Origin: Minisyncoccota bacterium
GTDB lineage: Bacteria > Patescibacteriota > Minisyncoccia > Phycocordibacterales > UBA9973
Assembly: GCA_041657885.1 (NCBI GenBank)
Contig: JBBABB010000002.1
Location: 121,095 to 185,094 of the forward strand
Direction: 5' to 3'
Length of the DNA stretch: 64,000 bases
In this document: one piece after another, positions 20,386 to 45,604 of the stretch
How the letters are laid out: each line of letters begins with the position of its first letter
Position numbering within the stretch: position 1 is the first letter of the stretch
Position numbers and translations under genes: made by a program
The notes under the pieces: model-generated
What the model was told of the DNA's origin: nothing
The model's database searches: none
Seen by the model: the letters and a program-made list of their open reading frames with translations, nothing else

Positions 20386-20468
20386 GCACGAGTGGAGAAA
20401 CGGTATACTCGCTGCCTTGAGGTGGCAGTGCTCGCAAGGGCGTGGAGGTTCAAATCCTCTCTCGTGCA
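20386..20468 (+). tRNA. tRNA-Leu (anticodon GAG)
   Basis: GCACGAG acceptor, anticodon arm CTGCC TTGAGGT GGCAG, long variable arm, T-arm GAGGTTCAAATCCTC, 3' CTCGTGC A. Confidence 0.8.
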
Positions 20469-20637
20469 CAAATGAAAAAACTCATGCTTTTGTATGGGTT
20501 TTTCATTTGTGCGCGGGAGCGAGACAACTGCTTGTCTCGTGTAGAGGATTTGAAAACCTTGAGCATACAATTTAAAATTTATTAATTTTAAATTGTGCGA
20601 AAGGTGTACAGAATCTGTAAGATTCAAAAAGCGTACT

Positions 20638-33492: not shown

Positions 33493-35211
33493 ATGAAAAG
33501 TGAAGCAAAAAATTGTCAGAATTGTAAAAAAGACTTTGTTATCGAGCCGGATGATTTTTCATTTTATGAAAAAATAAAAGTTCCACCGCCAACTTTTTGC
33601 CCGGAGTGTCGGGGGATGAGAAGAATGGTGTGGAGGAATGAGAGAATTTTTTATCATAGGACATGCAATCTTTGTGGGATAAAGGTAATTTCGGTATTCG
33701 GGAATAAAGATATTAAGGTGTATTGTCAGAAATGTTGGTGGGGAGATGGCTGGGATGGATTAGAGTACGAGCAAGATTATGATTTCTCAAAGAGTTTTTT
33801 TGAGCAATATAAAAATCTATTTAGAAACGTTCCACAGATTAATTTAAATGGTCACGCAACAAACAAAAATTCAGATTACGTTAATTATATAGTTCAAGCG
33901 AATAATTCTTATTATTGTTTTGGGGGAGGATACTTGGATAATATTATGTTTTCTACTGTTGGAGTTAGAATGAAAGATTCAGCAGAAATATATTTTTCAA
34001 TGGATTGTGAGTTTTGTTATGAAATACTAAATTGCCAAAAATGTTATAGAATTTATTATGGGAATAATTTGAGAGATTGTCTCGATAGTTATTTTTTACA
34101 AGATTGCGTGAATTGCAATGAATGTATATTGTCGTGTAACTTGCGCAACAAACAATATGTGTTTAGAAATGAACAATTGACGAGAGAAGAGTATTTGATG
34201 AAAAAAGAGGAATTTTTAATTCTGTTTAGAAAAGATGTTTCATTGTTAAAAAATGAATTTAAAAAAATAGTATTAGAAAAACCAAAAAAGTTTGCAAATA
34301 TATTGAAATCAGAATTTTCAACAGGAGATAATATAACCGAAAGTTCAAAAGTTTATGATTCTTTTAATGTTTCAAAAACTGAAAATTGTAAATACTCTCA
34401 AGATATAGTCGGCGTGGCCCATGATGTTTACGACAGTACTAGTATCGGCCTGGGATTAGAACGAGTGTATGAATCAATGTCAGTAAGCATGAATATAACA
34501 GATGTGAATTTTTCAGTAATAGTAAGAAGTGCATCATATAAATTAAATTATTCTTTTTCTATGCATGCATCTTCTAATTGTTTCGGTTGTGTAGGATTAA
34601 AAAGTAAATCTTATTGCATCCTCAACCGCCAATACACCAAAGAAGAATACGAAGAATTAGTTCCAAAGATCATCCAGCATATGAACGATATGCCCTACAT
34701 AGATAGCAAAGGAAGAATATACAAATATGGAGAGTTTTTTCCAAGTGAACTATCACCATTCTGTTACAACGAGACAATCGCCCAAGAGTATTTTCCTTTG
34801 ACTAAAGAACAAGCTCTACAACAAGGTTACAAATGGAAGGAGAAAGAAGAAAGAAACTACCAAATAGACATTAAAAATGAAGATATCCCTGATAATATTA
34901 AAGATATAACTGATGATATCATCGGTAAAGTCATAGAATGCTCTCACAAAGGCACCTGTAACCAACAATGTACCGAAGCCTTCAAGATAATCCCCGAAGA
35001 ACTCCAATTCTACCGTCGTATGAACCTTCCATTACCAAGACTTTGTCCCAACTGTCGGCACTATGAACGTCTAGCTCAACGTAATCCTATGAAATTATGG
35101 CATAGGAAGTGTATGCATGAGGGTTGTACCAATGAATTTGAGACGAATTATGCCCCAGAGAGACCCGAAATCATTTATTGTGAGAAATGTTATCAAAAAG
35201 AGGTGTATTAA
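33493..35211 (+). CDS. Cysteine-rich paralog 2 of 5
   Basis: Same architecture as 12953; N-terminus CQNCKKDFVIEPDDFSFYEKIKVPPPTFCPECR, C-terminus ...NYAPERPEIIYCEKCYQKEVY. Confidence 0.75.
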   Translation: MKSEAKNCQNCKKDFVIEPDDFSFYEKIKVPPPTFCPECRGMRRMVWRNERIFYHRTCNLCGIKVISVFGNKDIKVYCQKCWWGDGWDGLEYEQDYDFSKSFFEQYKNLFRNVPQINLNGHATNKNSDYVNYIVQANNSYYCFGGGYLDNIMFSTVGVRMKDSAEIYFSMDCEFCYEILNCQKCYRIYYGNNLRDCLDSYFLQDCVNCNECILSCNLRNKQYVFRNEQLTREEYLMKKEEFLILFRKDVSLLKNEFKKIVLEKPKKFANILKSEFSTGDNITESSKVYDSFNVSKTENCKYSQDIVGVAHDVYDSTSIGLGLERVYESMSVSMNITDVNFSVIVRSASYKLNYSFSMHASSNCFGCVGLKSKSYCILNRQYTKEEYEELVPKIIQHMNDMPYIDSKGRIYKYGEFFPSELSPFCYNETIAQEYFPLTKEQALQQGYKWKEKEERNYQIDIKNEDIPDNIKDITDDIIGKVIECSHKGTCNQQCTEAFKIIPEELQFYRRMNLPLPRLCPNCRHYERLAQRNPMKLWHRKCMHEGCTNEFETNYAPERPEIIYCEKCYQKEVY

Positions 35212-35410
35212 AATTCTCCTCTTGAGGTGAAGTTGGGTTGGGACCCAACTGTAAAACCTTTTGAGATATCTTTGTAATCAAAGTATCCAAAAGGTGTACT
35301 GCTCCTGTAAGGAGTACCCGCTAATGCGGGGGAGGTGGATGAATTTAATTCTGGATTAATTCATCCACCCCGTCTTTTGAGTACAAAATTCACCCCTCAA
35401 GAGGGGAATA
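35212..35410 (+). ncRNA. Conserved ~190-nt structured element, copy A (candidate ncRNA or 3'UTR element), directly after the paralog 2 stop
   Basis: About 93% identical to 45605-45792. Predicted closing helix cctcttgagg/cctcaagagg, hairpins agttggg..cccaact, ccttttg..caaaagg, cccgc taat gcggg, ggtggat..atccacc; the differences from copy B include compensatory pairs. Confidence 0.5.
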
Positions 35411-35499
35411 AATTTTGATCCAAAAATATGCTACCGCAGAACGATTATTTAGGGGACTTTTCAAAAAATATTGACTAATATCAAGCATCTTTTTATAAT

Positions 35500-35560
35500 A
35501 GCCATTTTTCTAGATATCCACTTGTTTTAAATTTTACAATAGGGGTATAATGTAATCCCA
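35500..35560 (+). promoter_or_regulatory. Putative sigma70-like promoter for the RNR gene
   Basis: The -10-like element ggggtataatgt about 45 nt upstream of ATG 35600, in an AT-rich intergenic region; positions approximate. Confidence 0.25.
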
Positions 35561-35599
35561 AAGTATTTTGTGTTAAATTATTAACTAATTTTTTAAAAT

Positions 35600-37975
35600 A
35601 TGCCTTCAAAAAAGAAAGTATCCAGCGTGAAAAAAAATGTGAAAAGGGTCGTCACAAAAAATTCTCCAGTTGCAGAAACAAAAAAATCAATTAAGAATAT
35701 TTTTATTAAAAGCGTTCAAAAAAGGGATGGTACAATCGTTCCTTTTGATATAGAAAAAGTAACGAATGCTATTAATAAAGCTATGCTTTCAAGTGGTGAA
35801 GGTTCTTCAAAAGAAGCGGAGCTTGTTGCCAATGGTGTTTTGATGGAATTAGTTAAAATTGCTAAAAAACACAAGAATTTTATTCCATCTGTTGAAGGAA
35901 TTCAGGATACAGTTGAACAAGAATTAATGTTGTCTGATTATGTGAAAACTTCTAAGCATTACATTCTTTATCGTGAAGAAAGAGCAAGACTAAGAGCTCA
36001 TAGCATAACTGTTCCAGTCCATTTGAAAAAGTTAGCAGATGAAAGCAAAAAATATTTTAGAACTTCCCTTGGTGAATTTGTTTATTACCGAAGTTATTCG
36101 AAGTGGATTAAAGAAGAGGGTAGACGTGAGACATGGATTGAGACAGTTAACCGTTATATGGATTTCATGAAAAAAAATCTTGGCAACAAATTAAAAGCAC
36201 ATGAGTATGATGAGGTTAGAGATTACATTTTGAAAAACAAAGCAATGCCTTCTATGAGATTGTTGCAATTTGCCGGTCGTGCTGCAGAAGCGACAAATGT
36301 TTGTGCATATAATTGCTCATTTATTGCACCTGAGAGTTTCCAAGACATTGCAGAGATAATGTACATATCAATGTGTGGCACTGGTGCTGGTTGGTCAGTG
36401 GAAAGTGAAAATGTTCAAAAGCTTCCACAAATAAAAGTTCAAACAGGCCAGAAACTCGCGACTCATATTATAGATGATAGTAAAGAGGGTTGGGCAGATG
36501 CATTTTCTCTTGGTATAAGCACTTGGGCAGATGGGAAAGATATTGATTTTGATTTTTCAAAACTTCGTCCAGCTGGAGCTCGTCTTATGACCATGGGGGG
36601 CAAAAGTTCAGGACCTGACCCATTACGTAAACTTCTCGGATTTACCCGCAAGAAAATATTTACGAAGCAAGGACGTCGTCTCTCAAATCTAGATGTTCAC
36701 GATATTATTTGTATGGTGGGGGATTGTGTTGTTTCTGGTGGAGTTAGAAGGAGTGCCATGATTTCACTTTCCGATTTAGATGATAATGATATAAGAGATT
36801 CTAAAAAAGGTCAATTTTACCTTACAGATCCTCATAGATCTCTGGCTAACAACTCAGCTGTCTATATGCGAAAACCTCCAGCAACGCAGTTTTTAGATGA
36901 ATGGATTTCATTAATGAAGTCAGGTTCTGGGGAAAGAGGAATATTTAATCGTGGATCACTTGCTAAAACTTTACCAAAACGCCGAATTGATTATTTAAAA
37001 GAAGAAGGATATTTTGATGCATCTGGAGAAAATATTATAGGAATTCTTGGAACAAATCCGTGTGGAGAAATAATTTTGCGCTCAAAACAATTTTGTAATT
37101 TATCAGAAGTTATTTGTAGAGAGGATGACACAAAAGAAAGTTTATTAGAAAAAGTCAGAATAGCAACAATTTTGGGGACTTATCAATCAACTTTAACCAA
37201 TTTCCCATATCTTTCAAAAGCATGGGCAAATAATTGTGCTGCCGAAAGATTGCTTGGGGTATCTCTCACTGGTCAATGGGATAATAAAATTGTTCGTAAT
37301 GCGGAAGTTTTGAAAATATTGAAGAATGAAGCGATAAGAGTAAATAAAGTTTATGCTAAGCGTTTTGAAATTAATACTTCTAATGCTATCACTTGTGTAA
37401 AGCCATCAGGAACAGTTTCTAAAACATTTGATACTGGTTCTGGAATGCACCCAAGACACGCTCCTTACTATATACAACGCATTCGTATTTCTTCAACCGA
37501 TTCATTATTTAAAATGTTGAAAGACCAAGGAGTACCTTATCATCCAGAAGTTGGTCAATCAATGGAAGATGCAAATACTTATGTTCTTGAATTTCCAATG
37601 AAGTCACCCGTCGGGTCAATTTTCAAAGACGACATTTCTTCTATTGAACAATTGGAACATTGGAAATTGGTAAAAGAAAATTATACCGAACATAATCCAT
37701 CTGTGACTATTTCTGTCGGAGATGATGAATGGCTTAAAGTTGCTCATTGGGTTTATGAGAATTGGGATATTGTTGGAGGGTTGTCATTCTTGCCAAGATC
37801 AAATCATGTTTACCAACTTGCACCTTATGAAGAAATAACTAGAGAACAATATGAAACTTTGATGAAGAAATTTCCAACGATTGATTATTCAAAAATTATT
37901 ACTTATGAAAAAGTAGATGAAACTGAAGTAAAAAGAGAACTCGCTTGTATTTCTGGAGTTTGTGATATAGTGTAA
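35600..37975 (+). CDS. Ribonucleotide reductase catalytic subunit with N-terminal ATP-cone; NPCGE active-site motif suggests class II (adenosylcobalamin-dependent, NrdJ-like)
   Basis: ATP-cone VQKRDGTIVPFDIEKVTNAI; active-site GTNPCGEIIL; C-terminal redox pair CISGVC; no small-subunit gene nearby. Confidence 0.7.
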   Translation: MPSKKKVSSVKKNVKRVVTKNSPVAETKKSIKNIFIKSVQKRDGTIVPFDIEKVTNAINKAMLSSGEGSSKEAELVANGVLMELVKIAKKHKNFIPSVEGIQDTVEQELMLSDYVKTSKHYILYREERARLRAHSITVPVHLKKLADESKKYFRTSLGEFVYYRSYSKWIKEEGRRETWIETVNRYMDFMKKNLGNKLKAHEYDEVRDYILKNKAMPSMRLLQFAGRAAEATNVCAYNCSFIAPESFQDIAEIMYISMCGTGAGWSVESENVQKLPQIKVQTGQKLATHIIDDSKEGWADAFSLGISTWADGKDIDFDFSKLRPAGARLMTMGGKSSGPDPLRKLLGFTRKKIFTKQGRRLSNLDVHDIICMVGDCVVSGGVRRSAMISLSDLDDNDIRDSKKGQFYLTDPHRSLANNSAVYMRKPPATQFLDEWISLMKSGSGERGIFNRGSLAKTLPKRRIDYLKEEGYFDASGENIIGILGTNPCGEIILRSKQFCNLSEVICREDDTKESLLEKVRIATILGTYQSTLTNFPYLSKAWANNCAAERLLGVSLTGQWDNKIVRNAEVLKILKNEAIRVNKVYAKRFEINTSNAITCVKPSGTVSKTFDTGSGMHPRHAPYYIQRIRISSTDSLFKMLKDQGVPYHPEVGQSMEDANTYVLEFPMKSPVGSIFKDDISSIEQLEHWKLVKENYTEHNPSVTISVGDDEWLKVAHWVYENWDIVGGLSFLPRSNHVYQLAPYEEITREQYETLMKKFPTIDYSKIITYEKVDETEVKRELACISGVCDIV

Positions 37976-38007
37976 AATAATTAAAAATTAAGAATTAAAA
38001 ATTAATA

Positions 38008-38532
38008 ATGAGAAACGGAATCAAATATGTTATTGCTTTTTTAGTTGTGTTAGTTATCAGACTGATGCCTTTTCGAGCACCAAATGTGGAGCCAATCATG
38101 GCAGTGATTATGCCATTCGGAAAAGTTTACGGAGGAATTATGGCTTTTATATTTGGGTTCCTTAGTATTGTTTTGTTTGACTCTGTAACGTCTGGCATAG
38201 GTATCTGGACCCTTGTCACCGCTCTTGCTTACGGTTTTGTGGGGTTAGGAGCTTATTTTTACTTCAAAAATCGCTCAGGATGGAAAAGTTATGCTTCTTA
38301 TGCAATTATAGCCACAATTCTATATGACGTATTGACTGGTCTTACTATTGGTCCATTGTTTTTCCACCAGTCATTCATGGTATCATTAGTAGGTCAGGTT
38401 CCGTTTACTGCTATGCACTTGCTTGGAAATGTTTCTTTTGCTATAGTTCTATCACCAGTAATTGAAAGATGGATAGTAAAAGAAAATATTTCAGAATCAA
38501 AAATAATGACAAGAGAGATAGTCAAGGTTTAG
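38008..38532 (+). CDS. Small polytopic membrane protein, possibly an ECF-transporter S-component-like vitamin transporter
   Basis: 174 aa, 5-6 TM helices, size and topology like ECF S components; no diagnostic motif. Confidence 0.3.
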   Translation: MRNGIKYVIAFLVVLVIRLMPFRAPNVEPIMAVIMPFGKVYGGIMAFIFGFLSIVLFDSVTSGIGIWTLVTALAYGFVGLGAYFYFKNRSGWKSYASYAIIATILYDVLTGLTIGPLFFHQSFMVSLVGQVPFTAMHLLGNVSFAIVLSPVIERWIVKENISESKIMTREIVKV

Positions 38533-38559
38533 TTTATTTAACAATCGAATACCTATTAT

Positions 38560-38722
38560 GTTTGGAAGTGAGGTTTAATTCCTCCACTGTGCCGCAACGG
38601 TAAAGTCCAACGCTAAGTGCGTTTAGGAACAAGTCCGATCTTAATATAATAGCGTTTGTCCCGAGCAGGAGAATACTTACTTTGTATTTTAAAAAACTTC
38701 TGCATGTGTAGGAGTTTTTTTT
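38560..38722 (+). promoter_or_regulatory. Candidate cobalamin riboswitch (aptamer plus terminator/SD-sequestering hairpin) upstream of the DUF4430 gene
   Basis: UGGAAGUGAGGUUUAAUUCC...CACUGUGCC GCAA CGG UAAAGUCC resembles cobalamin-riboswitch core elements (GGGAA..GGUG.AA.UCC...CACUG.CC..GG.GGGAAGUC in E. coli btuB); terminator cttctgc atgt gtaggag + T8 at 38697-38722 contains the AGGAG SD. Confidence 0.4.
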
Positions 38723-38733
38723 GATTTATATTT

Positions 38734-39171
38734 ATGAAAAATAATAAAAAAATTTCCATAGCATTTATAATATTTTCTATTTTATTTATAGGTTTTTTCT
38801 ATTATTTTAATTTTCAGATAGGGGTTAAACTCCTATCTGAGGTACAGAAAGGGCCTAAGGCCCTATCTGTGAAGAATGTAGAAGTTTCTTTAAATGTTTT
38901 AGATAAAAAATACGAAGTAGAAATAAGAGAGGACTCATCTGTTTTTGAAGTTATGCAGAAAATACAAGAAGAAAGTATGGGGAATAATTTATTTAGTTTT
39001 AAATACAGAGAACATCCGGGGTTAGGAATTTTTATAAATGAGATAAATGGTAAAAAAGGAGGAGAAGGTGGGTATTGGATTTATTATGTAAATGGGGAAG
39101 AAGCTAACATCGGAGTTTCTAATTATAAAATTAATAATGGAGATATAATCTCTTGGAAATATGAAAAATAA
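38734..39171 (+). CDS. DUF4430-like secreted protein (transcobalamin/intrinsic-factor beta-domain-like, putative B12 binding)
   Basis: N-terminal signal anchor; ~100-aa domain with the GGYWIYYVNGE...NNGDIISWKY C-terminal block characteristic of DUF4430. Confidence 0.45.
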   Translation: MKNNKKISIAFIIFSILFIGFFYYFNFQIGVKLLSEVQKGPKALSVKNVEVSLNVLDKKYEVEIREDSSVFEVMQKIQEESMGNNLFSFKYREHPGLGIFINEINGKKGGEGGYWIYYVNGEEANIGVSNYKINNGDIISWKYEK

Positions 39172-40984
39172 AATTATTTTTGCAATAATGTTTATTGCAT
39201 TCGCATTGTCTTTTGTTTTACCTGTTTTCGCTGATACAAAAATTAATTTACAAATAAAAACAAATACTCAAACAATTTATGATAGTGAAATAACTGTAAC
39301 CCCTTGCGATAGTGAAAGTGATGGAATATTAAAAGAGACTCCATATTGTGCACTTGCACAGTCTGGTACACCGAGTGATTGGACGGGCTTATGGGTGAAC
39401 TCTATAAATAATATAATCAATAATGATAATGGTAACGGCGCATATTGGATGTGGCTTGCAAATTTAAACATTGATACTAGCCCAACTTCTCCATATTCTC
39501 TCTCCTCTAAGCAATATATTTTACAAGGTAATGATAATATACTCTTTTACTATAATACAAACCCTCTTGATATATCTGTTGATAATGAAAATCCAAAAGT
39601 TGGGGAGAGTATAAAAATAACTGGGAAAGAATTAGGTCTGGATTCATCATGGAATCCTTTATGGAATAAAGCTATTGGTGGGAAAGTAGTAATTAATGGA
39701 GAAGAACACGAATTAAATGAAAATGGTGAATTTCTGTTTGAAATAATAAATGAAGATAGTCTTTTAATAAAAATAAAAAAAGAGAATTTTATTGATTCAA
39801 GAGAAGTAACAATAACACCGGAGAAAATTAGAAGGAGCAGTGGAAGCAGAGCAGGATCTTATATCAACACAAGTGTAATAGAAAAATCGTTTTCTGTAGC
39901 TAATGCGATTTTATTTTTATCTCAAAATCAACAAAATGATAGGTCATATGGTTTACCCATGTACACTGACTGGGTAGCGATAGCGGTATCAGCAGGAGAT
40001 AATTCTAATCTGAAATTAAGTATAACAAATTATTTAAAATCAAATTCTATAAATTCATCTATTCTTACAGATAATGAAAGGCGTGCTATGTCCTTAATGG
40101 CTCTTGGAATTAATCCATACATAGGAACTGATGTAAATTATATTAAGAAAATTACTGATAATTTTGATGGAATACAATTCGGAGATAATTCACTTATAAA
40201 TGATGACATCTTTGCTTTGATTGTTCTTAAAAATGCAGGCTATACTATAAATGATGAAATAATTATAAAAGATATAAATTATATAATTTCAAAACAATTT
40301 TTAGATGGTTCGTGGGGAAATGTTGATATGACTTCTGCTGGTATTCAAGCGTTAAGAAGTTTTGAAAATATTGTTTTAGTACCAGAATCTATTTCAAAAG
40401 CAGAAAATTATTTGATTTCAAGTCAAGAACCTGACGGGGGATTTGGTAATTCATTTTCAACTTCTTGGGCATTACAGTCATTACAAAATAATGACCAGAT
40501 TTTAAAAGCTCTGAAATATTTAACTTCAAAGCAAGAAGTAGATGGAGGAATGGAAAGCATTGATGTAGACATAAATACTCGTATTTGGGTGACTGCTTAT
40601 GTAATACCTGCCATGCTTCATAAACCTTGGAATGAAATTTTAAATAATTTTCCTAAAGAAATAGTATTAGATGATTCTGTTCCGACAAAAATAGAAGATA
40701 AAAAAATTATTGAGGTTCCCAAAATAAAAAATATAAGGAAGTCCAACTTCCTTAAAATCTCTGGAAGCCTGCCCGACGACGGCAAGGCGGGTTCGACTTC
40801 CAGAAATTCTGAATCTTTATCAAAAAATTTAGAAGAAAAGGACATTTCAGTTAATCCATTATCAGTAAGTGCTATTGGATCTAATCAAAATAATAATAGT
40901 GGCACATTTTTCCCTGTAATTTATAGAATTTTACAAAAAATAAGAATTCCATTTGTGTGGCTTTGGGTTCACCTTGGTTTTTGA
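39161..40984 (+). CDS. Secreted alpha/alpha-toroid (prenyltransferase/terpene-cyclase-like repeat) protein with C-terminal hydrophobic anchor
   Basis: Signal peptide; four repeats of the QxxDGGWG type (LSQNQQNDRSYGL, QFLDGSWGN, SQEPDGGFGN, SKQEVDGGME) typical of the alpha6/alpha6 barrel fold shared with the transcobalamin alpha-domain. Confidence 0.45.
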   Translation: MKNKIIFAIMFIAFALSFVLPVFADTKINLQIKTNTQTIYDSEITVTPCDSESDGILKETPYCALAQSGTPSDWTGLWVNSINNIINNDNGNGAYWMWLANLNIDTSPTSPYSLSSKQYILQGNDNILFYYNTNPLDISVDNENPKVGESIKITGKELGLDSSWNPLWNKAIGGKVVINGEEHELNENGEFLFEIINEDSLLIKIKKENFIDSREVTITPEKIRRSSGSRAGSYINTSVIEKSFSVANAILFLSQNQQNDRSYGLPMYTDWVAIAVSAGDNSNLKLSITNYLKSNSINSSILTDNERRAMSLMALGINPYIGTDVNYIKKITDNFDGIQFGDNSLINDDIFALIVLKNAGYTINDEIIIKDINYIISKQFLDGSWGNVDMTSAGIQALRSFENIVLVPESISKAENYLISSQEPDGGFGNSFSTSWALQSLQNNDQILKALKYLTSKQEVDGGMESIDVDINTRIWVTAYVIPAMLHKPWNEILNNFPKEIVLDDSVPTKIEDKKIIEVPKIKNIRKSNFLKISGSLPDDGKAGSTSRNSESLSKNLEEKDISVNPLSVSAIGSNQNNNSGTFFPVIYRILQKIRIPFVWLWVHLGF

Positions 40985-41536: not shown

Positions 41537-43252
41537 ATGAAGAATGAAATTAAAAGCTGTCAAAACTGCAAGCTTCAATTTACAATTGAGTCCGATGATT
41601 TTTCATTTTACGAAAAAATTAAAGTTCCTCCACCAACTTTTTGTTCTGAGTGCAGGATGAAAGCACGTTATGCTTTTCGTAGTCAGACATCTCTATATAG
41701 AAGAATTTGTGACCTTTGTAAAGTAAGTATTATATCTATGTATGATTCAGATAAACCATTTCCAGTATATTGTCGAGATTGCTTTTATGGAGATAAATGG
41801 GATGCCACTTCATATGAACAGGATTATGATTTTGATAAATCATTTTTTGAGCAATTTAAAGAGTTAATGAATAAAACTCCACGAATTGCACTCATAGGGA
41901 CTAATAAGATAAATAGTGATTATACGACGCATTGCAGTGATATTAAAAATTGTTATTTATGTTTTAGTATTGGTCATTCCGAAGATTGTTTTTATCTAGG
42001 TCCTCAGTGTGTTAATGATAAGAATTGTTCTTCTTGCTCGATAACAAGATTTTCTGAATGGTCTTATATGCTTGTTGATTGTGAACAATGTTATAAAGTG
42101 AGTTTTTCTCAAATTTCTGTTAACTGTATTGAATCAATGTTTTTGTATGATTGTAGAAATTGTCAAAATTGTTTGGGTTGTACTAACTTAAGAAATAAGA
42201 ATTATTTTATTCTTAATCAACAATACACTAAGGAAGAATATTTAGTTAAGAAAAAAGAGTTAGCCCTTAATACATTTGATGGTTTTGAAAAATTCAAAAA
42301 AGAGTTTGAAAATTTAAAGAAAATATCCCTTCATAAATATTCTAGTGTAACTAATTCAAAAGATTGTACTGGTGATAACATTATTAATTCTCGAAACTGC
42401 AAAAATTGTTTCGTTATTTATGATTCAGAGAATACAAAATACAGTTATATCTGCAATAAAGCAAAAGAATGTATGGATGTTACTCATGTTTATCCATCTT
42501 CCGAATTTTCTTATTATTCCATTGCTCCTATTTATTCAAGTAAAATATACTTTTCTTCATTTATACAGTCGAATAGTTATGATATGTGGTATTCTGATAA
42601 TTGTTATACTTCTCATGATTGTTTTGGTTCAATATCTTTAAAAAATAAAAGTTATTGTATTTTAAATAAGCAATATACAGAAGAAGAATATTTTAAATTA
42701 AAGGAAAAGATAATTTTTCAGATGAGTTCTGTGCCATATTTAGGTAAGAATAATAGAGTTTATAATTTTGGTGATTTTTTCCCGTTTGAAATAAGTCCTT
42801 TTGATTATAATGAAAGTGTTCTTCAGGAATATTTTCCATTAACGAAAGAAGAAATTTTAAAAAGTGGATATTCTTGGCATGATCCTATTAATAAATCTTA
42901 CGAAATATCTATAAAAGCAGAAGATTTATCTTTACGTATTCAAGAAATTGGAGATGATATAATAAAAGAAACAATAGAGTGCGAACATAAAGGAAATTGT
43001 GCACATAATTGTAGTACAGCTTTTCGTATTTTACCAGATGAAATGCAAATTTATAAAACACTTGAAGTTCCTATCCCCAAATTATGTCAAAATTGTCGTT
43101 ATGCGGAAAGAATTTCATTAAGAAATCCAATGAAACTCTGGCATCGGTCTTGTATGAAAGAAGGGTGTATTAATGAATTTGAGACCTCTTATGCGCCAGG
43201 AAGGCCTGAAATTGTTTATTGTGAGAATTGTTATAATAAAGAAATATATTGA
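41537..43252 (+). CDS. Cysteine-rich paralog 3 of 5
   Basis: N-terminus CQNCKLQFTIESDDFSFYEKIKVPPPTFCSECR, C-terminus ...SYAPGRPEIVYCENCYNKEIY; same internal blocks. Confidence 0.75.
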   Translation: MKNEIKSCQNCKLQFTIESDDFSFYEKIKVPPPTFCSECRMKARYAFRSQTSLYRRICDLCKVSIISMYDSDKPFPVYCRDCFYGDKWDATSYEQDYDFDKSFFEQFKELMNKTPRIALIGTNKINSDYTTHCSDIKNCYLCFSIGHSEDCFYLGPQCVNDKNCSSCSITRFSEWSYMLVDCEQCYKVSFSQISVNCIESMFLYDCRNCQNCLGCTNLRNKNYFILNQQYTKEEYLVKKKELALNTFDGFEKFKKEFENLKKISLHKYSSVTNSKDCTGDNIINSRNCKNCFVIYDSENTKYSYICNKAKECMDVTHVYPSSEFSYYSIAPIYSSKIYFSSFIQSNSYDMWYSDNCYTSHDCFGSISLKNKSYCILNKQYTEEEYFKLKEKIIFQMSSVPYLGKNNRVYNFGDFFPFEISPFDYNESVLQEYFPLTKEEILKSGYSWHDPINKSYEISIKAEDLSLRIQEIGDDIIKETIECEHKGNCAHNCSTAFRILPDEMQIYKTLEVPIPKLCQNCRYAERISLRNPMKLWHRSCMKEGCINEFETSYAPGRPEIVYCENCYNKEIY

Positions 43253-43882: not shown

Positions 43883-45604
43883 TTGGAATACCAATCAACA
43901 ATAAAACAGTGTCAAAATTGCAAGAATGACTTCACCATTGAGTCCGATGATTTTTCATTTTATGAAAAAATAAAGGTTCCTGCCCCAACTTTTTGTCCGG
44001 AGTGCCGTATGATAAGAAGAATGACTTGGAGGAATGAAAGGTCTTTTTTTAAAAGGGATTGTGATTTTACTGGTAAACCGATAATCACAATGTTCCATCC
44101 TGAAGCTAATGTAAAAATATATGATCATGATGTTTGGTGGAGTGATAAATGGGAACCAACTGATTACGGCATGGATTATGATTTTTCTCGACCGTTCTTT
44201 AAGCAATATCAAGAACTTTTGTCTAAAGTTCCGCTTCAAAACTTAGGAAATAATCGTTGCATTAATTCCCCATATTGTAACCATTGTGCTGACTGTAAAA
44301 ATTGTTATTTAGTTTATGCTTCTTATCTGGCTGAAGATATTTTATATTCTCAAGGGGCTGGTTCTTTAAAAAGTTGTATTGACACTTATTCAATTATGAA
44401 ATCGGAGCAATGTTATGAAGACGTTCTTTGTGATTCTCTATATCAGGTCAATTTTTCTTTTGGCTCTGATCAATCAATTAATTCTTCTTTTTTGAAAGAA
44501 TGTATAAATTGTCAAGAATGTATCTGTTGTATAAATCTTCGTAATAAAAAATATTGTATTTTTAATAAGCAATATACCAAAGAAGAATATTTAAAAATTA
44601 AAGAAAGTTTAGATTTTGGAAGTTATAAAGTATTGTCTGAATTTAAAAAACAATATAAAGAATTCATTCTTAAATTTCCTTGCAAATATGCTGGAATATT
44701 AAAATCTCCTGATTCATCTGGGGATTGTATTTTAAATTCAAAAAATGTAAAACAGTCTTTTGATATTTACGGCGATATTGAAGATTCAAAATATGTAGCT
44801 CATGGTTTAGGGGCTAAAGACAGTTATGATGTTTATGGTTTTGGAGCTGGAGCTTTTCTTTTGTATGAGGGAGTAGATATTGGTATTAGGGGATCCAATA
44901 ATTATTTTTGCGTTCTTAATCATGGAAGCATTAATACTCAATATACTTATATGTGCTATAATGCCAAAAATCTTTTTGGTTGTATTGGTATAAGAAAAGG
45001 AGAATATTGTATTTTAAATAAAAAATATTCTAAAGAAAAATATGAAGAATTGGTTCCTAAAATAATAGAACATATGAACAATATGCCTTACATAGATAAT
45101 AAGGGTAGAATCTATAAATATGGAGAATTTTTTCCATCAGAATTAAGTCCATTTGCTTACAACGAAACCATAGCACAAGAATATTTTCCTAAAACAAAAA
45201 ACGAAATAGAAAACGATGGATATTTGTACAGAAAATCTCCCAAAAGGGAATATAAAACGACTATAAATTCTAAAGATTTACTAGATAATATAAATGAAGT
45301 AAATGATAATATCATAGATGAAATTATCGCTTGCCCAAATAATGGCAATGAATTAACCTTATGTACACAAGCATATCGCATAGTTAAAGATGAATTAACT
45401 TTTTTAAGAAGATATAATATCGCCTTACCGCGTTACTGTCCTAATTGCAGACACTATGAACGCCTATCTCAAAGAAATCCTATGAAATTATGGCACCGAA
45501 AATGCATGAAGGAAGGATGTAATAATGAATTTGAGACAAGTTATGCCCCAGAAAGGCCCGAGATTATTTATTGTGAGAAGTGCTATCAGAAGGAAGTGTA
45601 TTAA
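43883..45604 (+). CDS. Cysteine-rich paralog 4 of 5
   Basis: N-terminus CQNCKNDFTIESDDFSFYEKIKVPAPTFCPECR, C-terminus ...SYAPERPEIIYCEKCYQKEVY; a block near residues 388-440 is almost identical in protein to paralog 2. Confidence 0.75.
   Translation: MEYQSTIKQCQNCKNDFTIESDDFSFYEKIKVPAPTFCPECRMIRRMTWRNERSFFKRDCDFTGKPIITMFHPEANVKIYDHDVWWSDKWEPTDYGMDYDFSRPFFKQYQELLSKVPLQNLGNNRCINSPYCNHCADCKNCYLVYASYLAEDILYSQGAGSLKSCIDTYSIMKSEQCYEDVLCDSLYQVNFSFGSDQSINSSFLKECINCQECICCINLRNKKYCIFNKQYTKEEYLKIKESLDFGSYKVLSEFKKQYKEFILKFPCKYAGILKSPDSSGDCILNSKNVKQSFDIYGDIEDSKYVAHGLGAKDSYDVYGFGAGAFLLYEGVDIGIRGSNNYFCVLNHGSINTQYTYMCYNAKNLFGCIGIRKGEYCILNKKYSKEKYEELVPKIIEHMNNMPYIDNKGRIYKYGEFFPSELSPFAYNETIAQEYFPKTKNEIENDGYLYRKSPKREYKTTINSKDLLDNINEVNDNIIDEIIACPNNGNELTLCTQAYRIVKDELTFLRRYNIALPRYCPNCRHYERLSQRNPMKLWHRKCMKEGCNNEFETSYAPERPEIIYCEKCYQKEVY

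Follow-up and report, generated by a model that had tools for sequence, protein, structure and literature searches.

Several described systems bear on the locus considered here. In the corrinoid riboswitch of Priestia megaterium metE, mutagenesis has shown that a kissing interaction between loops L5 and L13 stabilises helix P13, the 3' side of which otherwise pairs with the 5' arm of the terminator (PMC10327014). The published consensus of L5 is UCCCG (PMC10327014). On the protein side, DUF4430 is known as the C-terminal domain of animal transcobalamins (PMC4350170). The subject of the present analysis is a stretch of 64,000 nucleotides, referred to below as the window, from a Candidatus Paceibacterota bacterium of the candidate phyla radiation (CPR; deposited as Minisyncoccota bacterium, GenBank assembly GCA_041657885.1, contig JBBABB010000002.1, positions 121,095 to 185,094). 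On its plus strand, positions 38536-38722 hold a cobalamin-class riboswitch followed by an intrinsic terminator, in front of a gene for a DUF4430 protein and a gene for a 607-aa surface protein. This element is read as a cobalamin (coenzyme-B12-type) riboswitch, most likely one that works at the level of transcription as an OFF switch for the gene pair, a reading to which a probability of about 0.86 is given. The reading draws on sequence and structure similarity to the Rfam family RF01482, on conservation, on covariation in the aptamer helices, the terminator and the antiterminator, and on gene context, all computed here; from these we infer that a corrinoid binds, which one it is, that loops L5 and L13 kiss, and in which direction the genes are regulated. 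The element adds a new, as yet unannotated member to a well-known class, and its regulatory mechanism is in itself nothing new. Within the searchable papers, nothing relevant was found on cobalamin riboswitches in Patescibacteria or the CPR.

When the window was compared with Rfam in E-value mode, the adenosylcobalamin (AdoCbl) model RF01482 of clan CL00101 matched the leader over the full length of the model at 47.6 bits, with E = 5.9e-8 locally and E = 1.3e-5 across the whole 64-kb window. It was the sole non-tRNA match with E < 0.1. The gathering score of RF01482 is 50; a curated gathering score is an operational annotation cut-off and no biological property. In gathering mode, a scan of the whole window returned four tRNAs only, and the riboswitch was absent. 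The family model R1 gave a single match in the window, at 117 bits, and found matches in 71 of 80 genome loci. Moreover, the leader folds better than all of 200 dinucleotide shuffles (z = -3.6). Two further Rfam matches, to snoZ105 (on the minus strand) and to the PyrR binding site, were discarded as chance matches of low score to the A/U-rich region of the terminator. The ligand is most likely AdoCbl, because the best-matching model is RF01482 and an AdoCbl-dependent reductase is encoded next door.

The leader is widely conserved in front of related genes. An identical DUF4430 protein is encoded in a metagenome-assembled genome labelled 'Candidatus Paceibacterota bacterium', and many relatives occur in Paceibacteria, Nomurabacteria, and other Patescibacteria. 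From these, 160 loci encoding DUF4430 relatives were retrieved and searched by nhmmer with the window leader as query, and 145 of them gave a plus-strand match directly 5' of the DUF4430 gene (E from 1e-38 to 5e-4). Among 27 loci compared with Rfam, 26 carry a cobalamin-clan match at the position of the leader. A curated gathering score is passed by 17 of the 27, either through RF01482 (up to 68.6 bits) or through RF01689 or RF00174, and the divergent leader L034 (Wildermuthbacteria) reaches 55.9 bits; the other 10 tested orthologous leaders, like the window copy, lie below every curated cut-off. Ten loci (L015, L018, L049, L054, L056, L069, L073, L126, L127, and L130) contain an extra 70-160 nt between the terminator and the DUF4430 start, in which the sequences GTCCCGTACTAAATTTTTGATTACG...TTAGTACTGGGATG and GGAATGAATCCCGTTAGAAGTAGGAAATC recur; no Rfam match was found in these segments in the eight loci scanned (all except L126 and L130).

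An earlier note on this DNA, made from the sequence alone, had suggested a cobalamin riboswitch of uncertain class and had called for a covariance-model search and a comparison of leaders at orthologous loci. The strings on which it relied are all present (UGGAAGUGAGGUUUAAUUCC at 38563-38582, CACUGUGCCGCAACGGUAAAGUCC at 38585-38608, and gcaggag at 38665-38671), and its suggestion of a cobalamin-class element is borne out by the significant covariance match, by a leader that is conserved and covarying in orthologous loci, and by a B12-related gene context; neither of the two outcomes that it had named as refuting (no significant match, no conserved leader) came about. Class membership, which it left undecided, is now largely resolved by the model comparison as RF01482 (AdoCbl), although the copy scores 2.4 bits under the gathering score of that family. 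Some details had to be revised. The end at 38722 stands as the end of the terminator, but the proposed start at 38560 lies too far downstream, as P1 begins at 38553 and the Rfam match at 38536. The note had found no clear B12 box, whereas one is located at 38631-38642; within it, AAGUCCG occupies 38631-38637, and all 58 of the 58 aligned relatives share AGUCCG. Its alignment with E. coli btuB was misregistered: UAAAGUCC (38601-38608), which it had set against btuB 'GGGAAGUC', falls in the internal loop of P6 and the first part of its extension, where relatives differ in sequence (UAAUGCCC, UAAUACUC). The motif that corresponds to the GCCACUG core reads GCAACGG at 38594-38600, with the junction A kept and both flanking helices (P5 and P6) still paired.

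Covariation was assessed in 58 aligned aptamers onto which the Rfam structure, with 30 pairs, was mapped. In this set, 98.0% of cells form standard pairs, compared with 40-55% after a shift of the 3' partners by 1-3 columns, and none of 500 shuffles reached the observed covariation score. Ten of the 30 pairs change on both sides: five of the nine in P1 (where 95% of cells pair), two in P3/P4 (G-C to A-U in 18 sequences), and all three in the P6 extension (C-G to U-A in 14-20 sequences). P5, P6, and the core do not vary among the 58 aptamers; P6 and part of the core are thus uninformative on covariation. In the alignment from R1 matches, a second subfamily shows a compensatory swap of U-A to A-U in P5 (ACAGUGCCGCUACGG). 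In seven leaders (L027, L083, L110, L120, L127, L130, and L137), a G/C-rich hairpin of 20-35 nt is inserted into the loop of P3/P4, which corresponds to window positions 38574-38580; of these, L120 and L137 reach no more than 39-41 bits, and L127 matches nothing in the cobalamin clan at E <= 0.05.

The same data bear on whether the element still senses anything. A score under the Rfam gathering threshold would suit a degenerate, non-sensing relic, the similarity of which is residual or due to chance and the hairpin and U8 of which act as a constitutive terminator of the upstream operon for the reductase and an S-component-like membrane protein; there is indeed no terminator-like site between a promoter-like site at 35471-35499 and position 38691, so the hairpin would end the upstream transcript too. 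However, the window copy keeps every position that is invariant across the 58 aligned sequences and scores 117 bits with the family model, the compensatory changes in P1, P3/P4, P5, the P6 extension, and the antiterminator point to selection on structure, and the E-value across the whole window speaks against chance. It is therefore highly improbable that the element is such a relic.

The sensing riboswitch favoured here would depend on contact between L5 and L13. In the window, L5 (UGCCG, 38590-94) is complementary to L13 (CG[A]GCA, 38662-67) over five pairs with one bulge, and L5 differs from the published consensus at position 2. Both loops are without variation across the main family, save in L034 and L058. 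In L034, L5 reads CCCCG and L13 reads CG[C]GGG, which amounts to two compensatory changes. This divergent leader keeps the whole design in other letters: its P13 is CUUU/AAAG, and its terminator arm CUCUCCC is complementary to GGGAAAG.

Downstream of P1 lies a conserved block, CCCGAGCAGGAG (38660-71), that could take part in either of two structures, namely P13 with L13 kissing L5, or a duplex with the 5' arm of the terminator, CUUCUGC (38697-703). The motif CCCGAGCAGGA is present after P1 in 131 distinct leaders. The block is followed by a small A/U hairpin, in the place of which relatives have a hairpin of variable sequence, and then by the terminator. The hairpin cttctgc/atgt/gtaggag (38697-38714) and the eight T residues after it (38715-38722) are present as the earlier note described them, and the terminator that it saw there is supported by a terminator scan, by folding, and by relatives: a hairpin with a T-run follows the small A/U hairpin in 131 of 131 distinct leaders. 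A consensus scan found this to be the only terminator-like site within 37800-39300, with 13 pairs including the A/U extension; the hairpin has a folding energy of -13.1 kcal/mol (z = -5.4), which none of 200 shuffles matched. Its arms covary across relatives (CUUCUGC/GCAGGAG, AUUCUGC/GCAGGAU, CUCUUGC/GCAAGGG, and GCCCCUCC/GGAGGGGC). On these sequence features, the hairpin with U8 is a terminator.

The note's further proposal that the upstream GCAGGAG serves as an alternative pairing partner, that is, as an antiterminator, is upheld by complementarity statistics and by covariation. In relatives, the 5' arm of the terminator is complementary to the conserved GAGCAGGAN, with a median duplex energy of -11.6 kcal/mol, and in 85% of leaders the antiterminator pairing is at least as good as at least 95% of shuffles. 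The base that follows GCAGGA and its partner change together (U:A in 35, G:C in 21, and G:U in 2 of 84). When RNA from 38655 to 38706 is folded, before the 3' arm of the terminator exists, the minimum free energy structure is the antiterminator (-10.4 kcal/mol), whereas the complete platform gives the terminator. By itself, the P13 hairpin UCC-CGAGCA-GGA has only -2.3 kcal/mol. The complementarity statistics, the covariation, and the truncated versus full folds support mutually exclusive terminator and antiterminator structures.

The 3' arm of the hairpin includes AGGAG (38710-14), and the earlier note had taken it to be the Shine-Dalgarno (SD) sequence of the DUF4430 gene, hidden by the hairpin at 38697-38714. 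On this account the switch would act mainly on translation, and a minority of relatives fit it, with the ATG directly after the T-run and GGA(G) 8-12 nt 5' of the start. Spacing argues against it. In the window, 19 nt separate the end of AGGAG from the ATG at 38734, and there is no closer in-frame start; among 125 relatives, the ATG follows the last G of the 3' arm at anything from 4 to 163 nt without a favoured spacing, and only 22% of leaders fall at 4-12 nt. SD sequences are, moreover, little used: an SD-like 4-mer occurs within 25 nt of the start in 8 of the 55 putative genes of the window, at spacings from 5 to 19 and with none preferred. The U8 directly after a G/C stem with a 5' A-tract extension is the signature of an intrinsic terminator, and the purine-rich 3' arm resembles AGGAG because it must mimic the antiterminator strand GCAGGAG. 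A mainly translational switch is thus unlikely, although a dual transcriptional and translational effect is possible in those leaders in which the ATG abuts the T-run.

For the transcriptional switch, the direction of control has to be read from topology. Activating (ON) corrinoid riboswitches are known (PMC10327014), and the ligand-stabilised P13 might instead block the terminator, as in the cobT riboswitch of Alkalihalobacillus halodurans. Such a design requires bases shared between P13 and the terminator, whereas here P13 (38659-70) and the terminator (38691-38722) do not overlap. It is with the antiterminator that the 3' side of P13 competes, which is the repressing topology, and the regulated genes resemble B12-capture proteins, for which repression by B12 is the expected logic. 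An ON switch is accordingly very unlikely, and the terminator most likely responds to the ligand as an OFF switch.

The OFF switch can be pictured as follows. With corrinoid bound, L5 would kiss L13 and thereby stabilise the otherwise weak P13, occupying GCAGGAG (38665-71). The terminator (38697-38722) would then form, and transcription would stop 12 nt short of the ATG of the DUF4430 gene. When ligand is lacking, GCAGGAG would pair with CUUCUGC (38697-703) to give the antiterminator, which would let RNA polymerase read into both genes, plausibly those of a surface-anchored, transcobalamin-like B12-capture system.

Several observations weigh against the reading of the element as a B12-responsive OFF switch. 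The window copy is 2.4 bits short of the RF01482 gathering score and also lies below the cut-offs of RF00174 and RF01689 in gathering mode. Covariation in support of the kissing loop comes from one outlier (L034) and from comparison with the Rfam consensus. P13 consists of three pairs only, and its U-A pair is lost in 4 of 58 sequences. With UGCCG in place of UCCCG in L5 and GCAACGG in place of GCCACUG, the affinity or selectivity for ligand could differ from that of the characterised members. Finally, no promoter was found between the upstream stop codon (38532) and P1 (38553). The departures from the known class (the L5/L13 variant, GCAACGG, the minimal P13, and the score 2.4 bits under the cut-off) are nevertheless modest, and the structural criteria all place the element with the repressing transcriptional corrinoid riboswitches. 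The parts of the element and the genes around it are collected in Table 1.

Table 1. Coordinates of the riboswitch parts and of the neighbouring genes in the 64,000-nt window
Feature	Position	Strand	Basis or remark
AdoCbl-dependent RTPR-type ribonucleotide reductase (predicted), N-terminal ATP-cone	35600-37975	+	TIGR02505, 284 bits, under its own cut-off of 340
174-aa multi-pass membrane protein, S-component-like	38008-38532	+	ECF S-component family PF07155 sub-threshold, 25.9 vs 26.7 bits
Aptamer with P13, cobalamin AdoCbl-type	38536-38678	+	RF01482 match, model positions 1-149; family model R1 38547-38675
P1, 5' strand CUAUUAUGU	38553-38561	+	Rfam alignment; partner 38644-38652
Conserved junction UUGGAA	38562-38567	+	Aligned to model consensus, invariant in relatives; precedes P3/P4
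P3/P4 hairpin GUGAGG-UUUAAUU-CCUCC	38568-38585	+	100% of cells pair
P5 (UG/CA) around L5 UGCCG (38590-94)	38588-38596	+	Invariant in close set
P6 (CGG 38598-600 / CCG 38635-37) with extension hairpin (UCC 38606-08 / GGA 38626-28; inner hairpin 38610-22)	38598-38637	+	
B12 box AAGUCCGAUCUU	38631-38642	+	Aligned to RF01482 consensus AAGUCAGGUCUU
P1, 3' strand AUAUAAUAG	38644-38652	+	Rfam alignment, covariation
Switching block UCCCGAGCAGGAG	38659-38671	+	P13 UCC 38659-61 / GGA 38668-70; L13 CGAGCA 38662-67; antiterminator strand GCAGGAG 38665-71
Small A/U hairpin AAUAC-UUACUUU-GUAUU	38672-38688	+	Predicted in both folds, between switching block and terminator
Intrinsic terminator: A-tract, CUUCUGC 38697-703, loop AUGU, GUAGGAG 38708-14, U8 38715-22	38691-38722	+	Terminator scan, folding
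First regulated gene: 145-aa DUF4430 protein, N-terminal membrane anchor, predicted transcobalamin beta-domain-like fold	38734-39171	+	PF14478
Second regulated gene: 607-aa surface protein, overlaps DUF4430 gene by 11 nt	39161-40984	+	Weak PF13243 and PF01122 matches

The products of the two regulated genes fit a role in B12 acquisition. The first matches PF14478 at 58.2 bits (cut-off 23.8). Searches of its profile, of the 607-aa protein, and of the S-component-like protein against PDB sequences gave no significant match, and the single DUF4430 sequence found transcobalamin-1 at E = 0.1 only; because these sequence searches gave nothing useful, folds had to be compared. The AlphaFold model of the DUF4430 protein consists of an N-terminal membrane helix and one domain (pLDDT 83), and its best match in the PDB is the beta domain of human transcobalamin, 5no0 (TM-score 0.80, target-normalised; root-mean-square deviation 1.9 A; E = 1.6e-7). 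Haptocorrin and intrinsic factor also match the fold of the model. Bacteroides BtuH was considered as well, as a possible DUF4430 protein, but the BtuH paper mentions neither DUF4430 nor intrinsic factor, and the comparison was dropped.

Of the 125 loci in which the downstream sequence is long enough, 113 have the 607-aa gene directly 3' of the DUF4430 gene. Its product is modelled as a signal peptide, beta domains, an alpha/alpha toroid (approx. 245-495), an 80-residue disordered linker, and a C-terminal transmembrane helix. Many of its homologues in other Patescibacteria fuse PF13243 (SQHop_cyclase_C), PF01122 (Cobalamin_bind), and PF14478 (DUF4430) in one chain, which is the domain order of the transcobalamin type. 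Transcobalamin is among the fold matches of the model, but the idea that the 607-aa protein is a specific homologue of the transcobalamin alpha domain was rejected, as terpene cyclases and complement TED domains match its fold as well or better; judged from the model, a relationship between the toroid and the alpha domain is only plausible. Taken as a pair, the DUF4430 and 607-aa proteins are likely a B12-capture system of CPR bacteria.

The riboswitch ends 12 nt 5' of the DUF4430 ATG, in a B12-related gene context, and this arrangement is kept in about 145 of the 160 loci. A gene for a predicted AdoCbl-dependent, RTPR-type ribonucleotide reductase lies 760 nt upstream, and such a gene is found 5' of DUF4430 in 47 of 98 loci; it probably encodes the enzyme whose need for B12 makes uptake necessary. 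Between the reductase gene and the riboswitch stands the gene for the 174-aa S-component-like protein, which is found just 5' of DUF4430 in 57 of 121 loci. This protein, which might be a solitary B12 transporter, has no match in NCBIfam or among PDB sequences.

Transcription of the region could start far upstream of the riboswitch. A sigma-70 match of at least 9/12 ends before P1 in only 12 of 70 leaders, with no conserved promoter, and promoter-like sites in the region are no commoner than in shuffles. The strongest such site on the plus strand (11/12 matches; TTGACT, 17 nt, TATAAT) lies at 35471-99, 5' of the reductase gene, and from there on no terminator-like site comes before that of the riboswitch. 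The switch may therefore be part of a longer transcript. The 390-nt intergenic region 5' of the reductase gene (35212-35599), which holds this best local promoter-like site, also contains a small G/C palindrome at 35393-35406; neither an Rfam match nor a copy of the riboswitch was found there.

It can be proposed, tentatively and with more doubt than confidence, that the Paceibacterota leaders form a distinct AdoCbl-riboswitch sub-lineage (L5 UGCCG with L13 CGAGCA, and a GCAACGG or GCUACGG core), perhaps acting as an internal conditional terminator in a transcript that runs through reductase, S-component, riboswitch, DUF4430, and the 607-aa gene. In B12-replete cells, the reductase mRNA would then end at the riboswitch, and when B12 is scarce, read-through would add a two-protein, transcobalamin-like capture system at the cell surface. 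If this were true, the pair would correspond, in bacteria, to the B12 carriers of animals, and it would apparently be all that these reduced genomes have for taking up B12.

The B12 locus is flanked by three paralogous Cys-rich proteins of approx. 572 aa with many CxxC motifs, encoded on the plus strand at 33493-35211, 41537-43252, and 43883-45604. The first two are 46% identical, and no Pfam family was found in any of the three. In the window as a whole, 52 of 55 putative genes lie on the plus strand, and the GC content is 32.6%. A tRNA-Leu with anticodon GAG and a long variable arm (20386-20469, plus strand), on which ARAGORN agrees, scores 50.4 bits in E-value mode against a gathering score of 29; it is missing from the gathering-mode list of Rfam and was probably lost to speed filters.

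The value of these findings lies chiefly in annotation and in flagging the DUF4430/toroid pair as a likely B12-capture system. The clade straddles the Rfam gathering score, so routine pipelines miss such riboswitches in CPR/Patescibacteria genomes; adding sequences of the clade to the seed alignment would mend this gap. The switch also marks the DUF4430/alpha-toroid pair as B12-regulated, which is the best available functional clue for a widespread, uncharacterised pair of CPR surface proteins. It points to B12 scavenging that would feed an AdoCbl-dependent ribonucleotide reductase as a regulated need of ultra-small, probably symbiotic bacteria.

Among known systems, RF01482 has the same architecture as the window element. 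Both have the P1 helix, the GGAA junction, the P3/P4 hairpin, P5 with L5, P6 (with an internal loop and one hairpin as its extension), the B12 box AAGUC(A/C)G, and, on the 3' side, a P13 hairpin with the loop CGAG(G)CA. The element differs from the model in L5 (UGCCG versus u-CcC-g) and, by a matching change, in L13 (CGAGCA versus CGAGGcA); in its core, where GCAACGG replaces GCCACUG and P6 is compensated (CGG/CCG); and in P13, which has 3 bp instead of two stacked segments of 6 bp. With the riboswitch of P. megaterium metE, it shares the regulatory topology, in which P13 alone is weaker than the antiterminator (PMC10327014). In metE, however, L5 is UCCCG and five contiguous kissing pairs are formed, whereas the window combines L5 UGCCG with a bulged A in L13. 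The metE riboswitch controls a B12-independent methionine synthase in a Firmicute by an experimentally proven mechanism, while the window element would control B12-capture genes in a CPR bacterium by a mechanism that we infer. In the env8 hydroxocobalamin and E. coli btuB riboswitches, L5 and L13 likewise form a kissing loop; in env8, too, L13 contains a bulge (PMC10327014), and btuB, like the window element, controls genes for B12 acquisition. In contrast to env8 and btuB, in which a ribosome-binding site is sequestered, the conserved output of the window family is an intrinsic terminator, in a genome that barely uses SD sequences.

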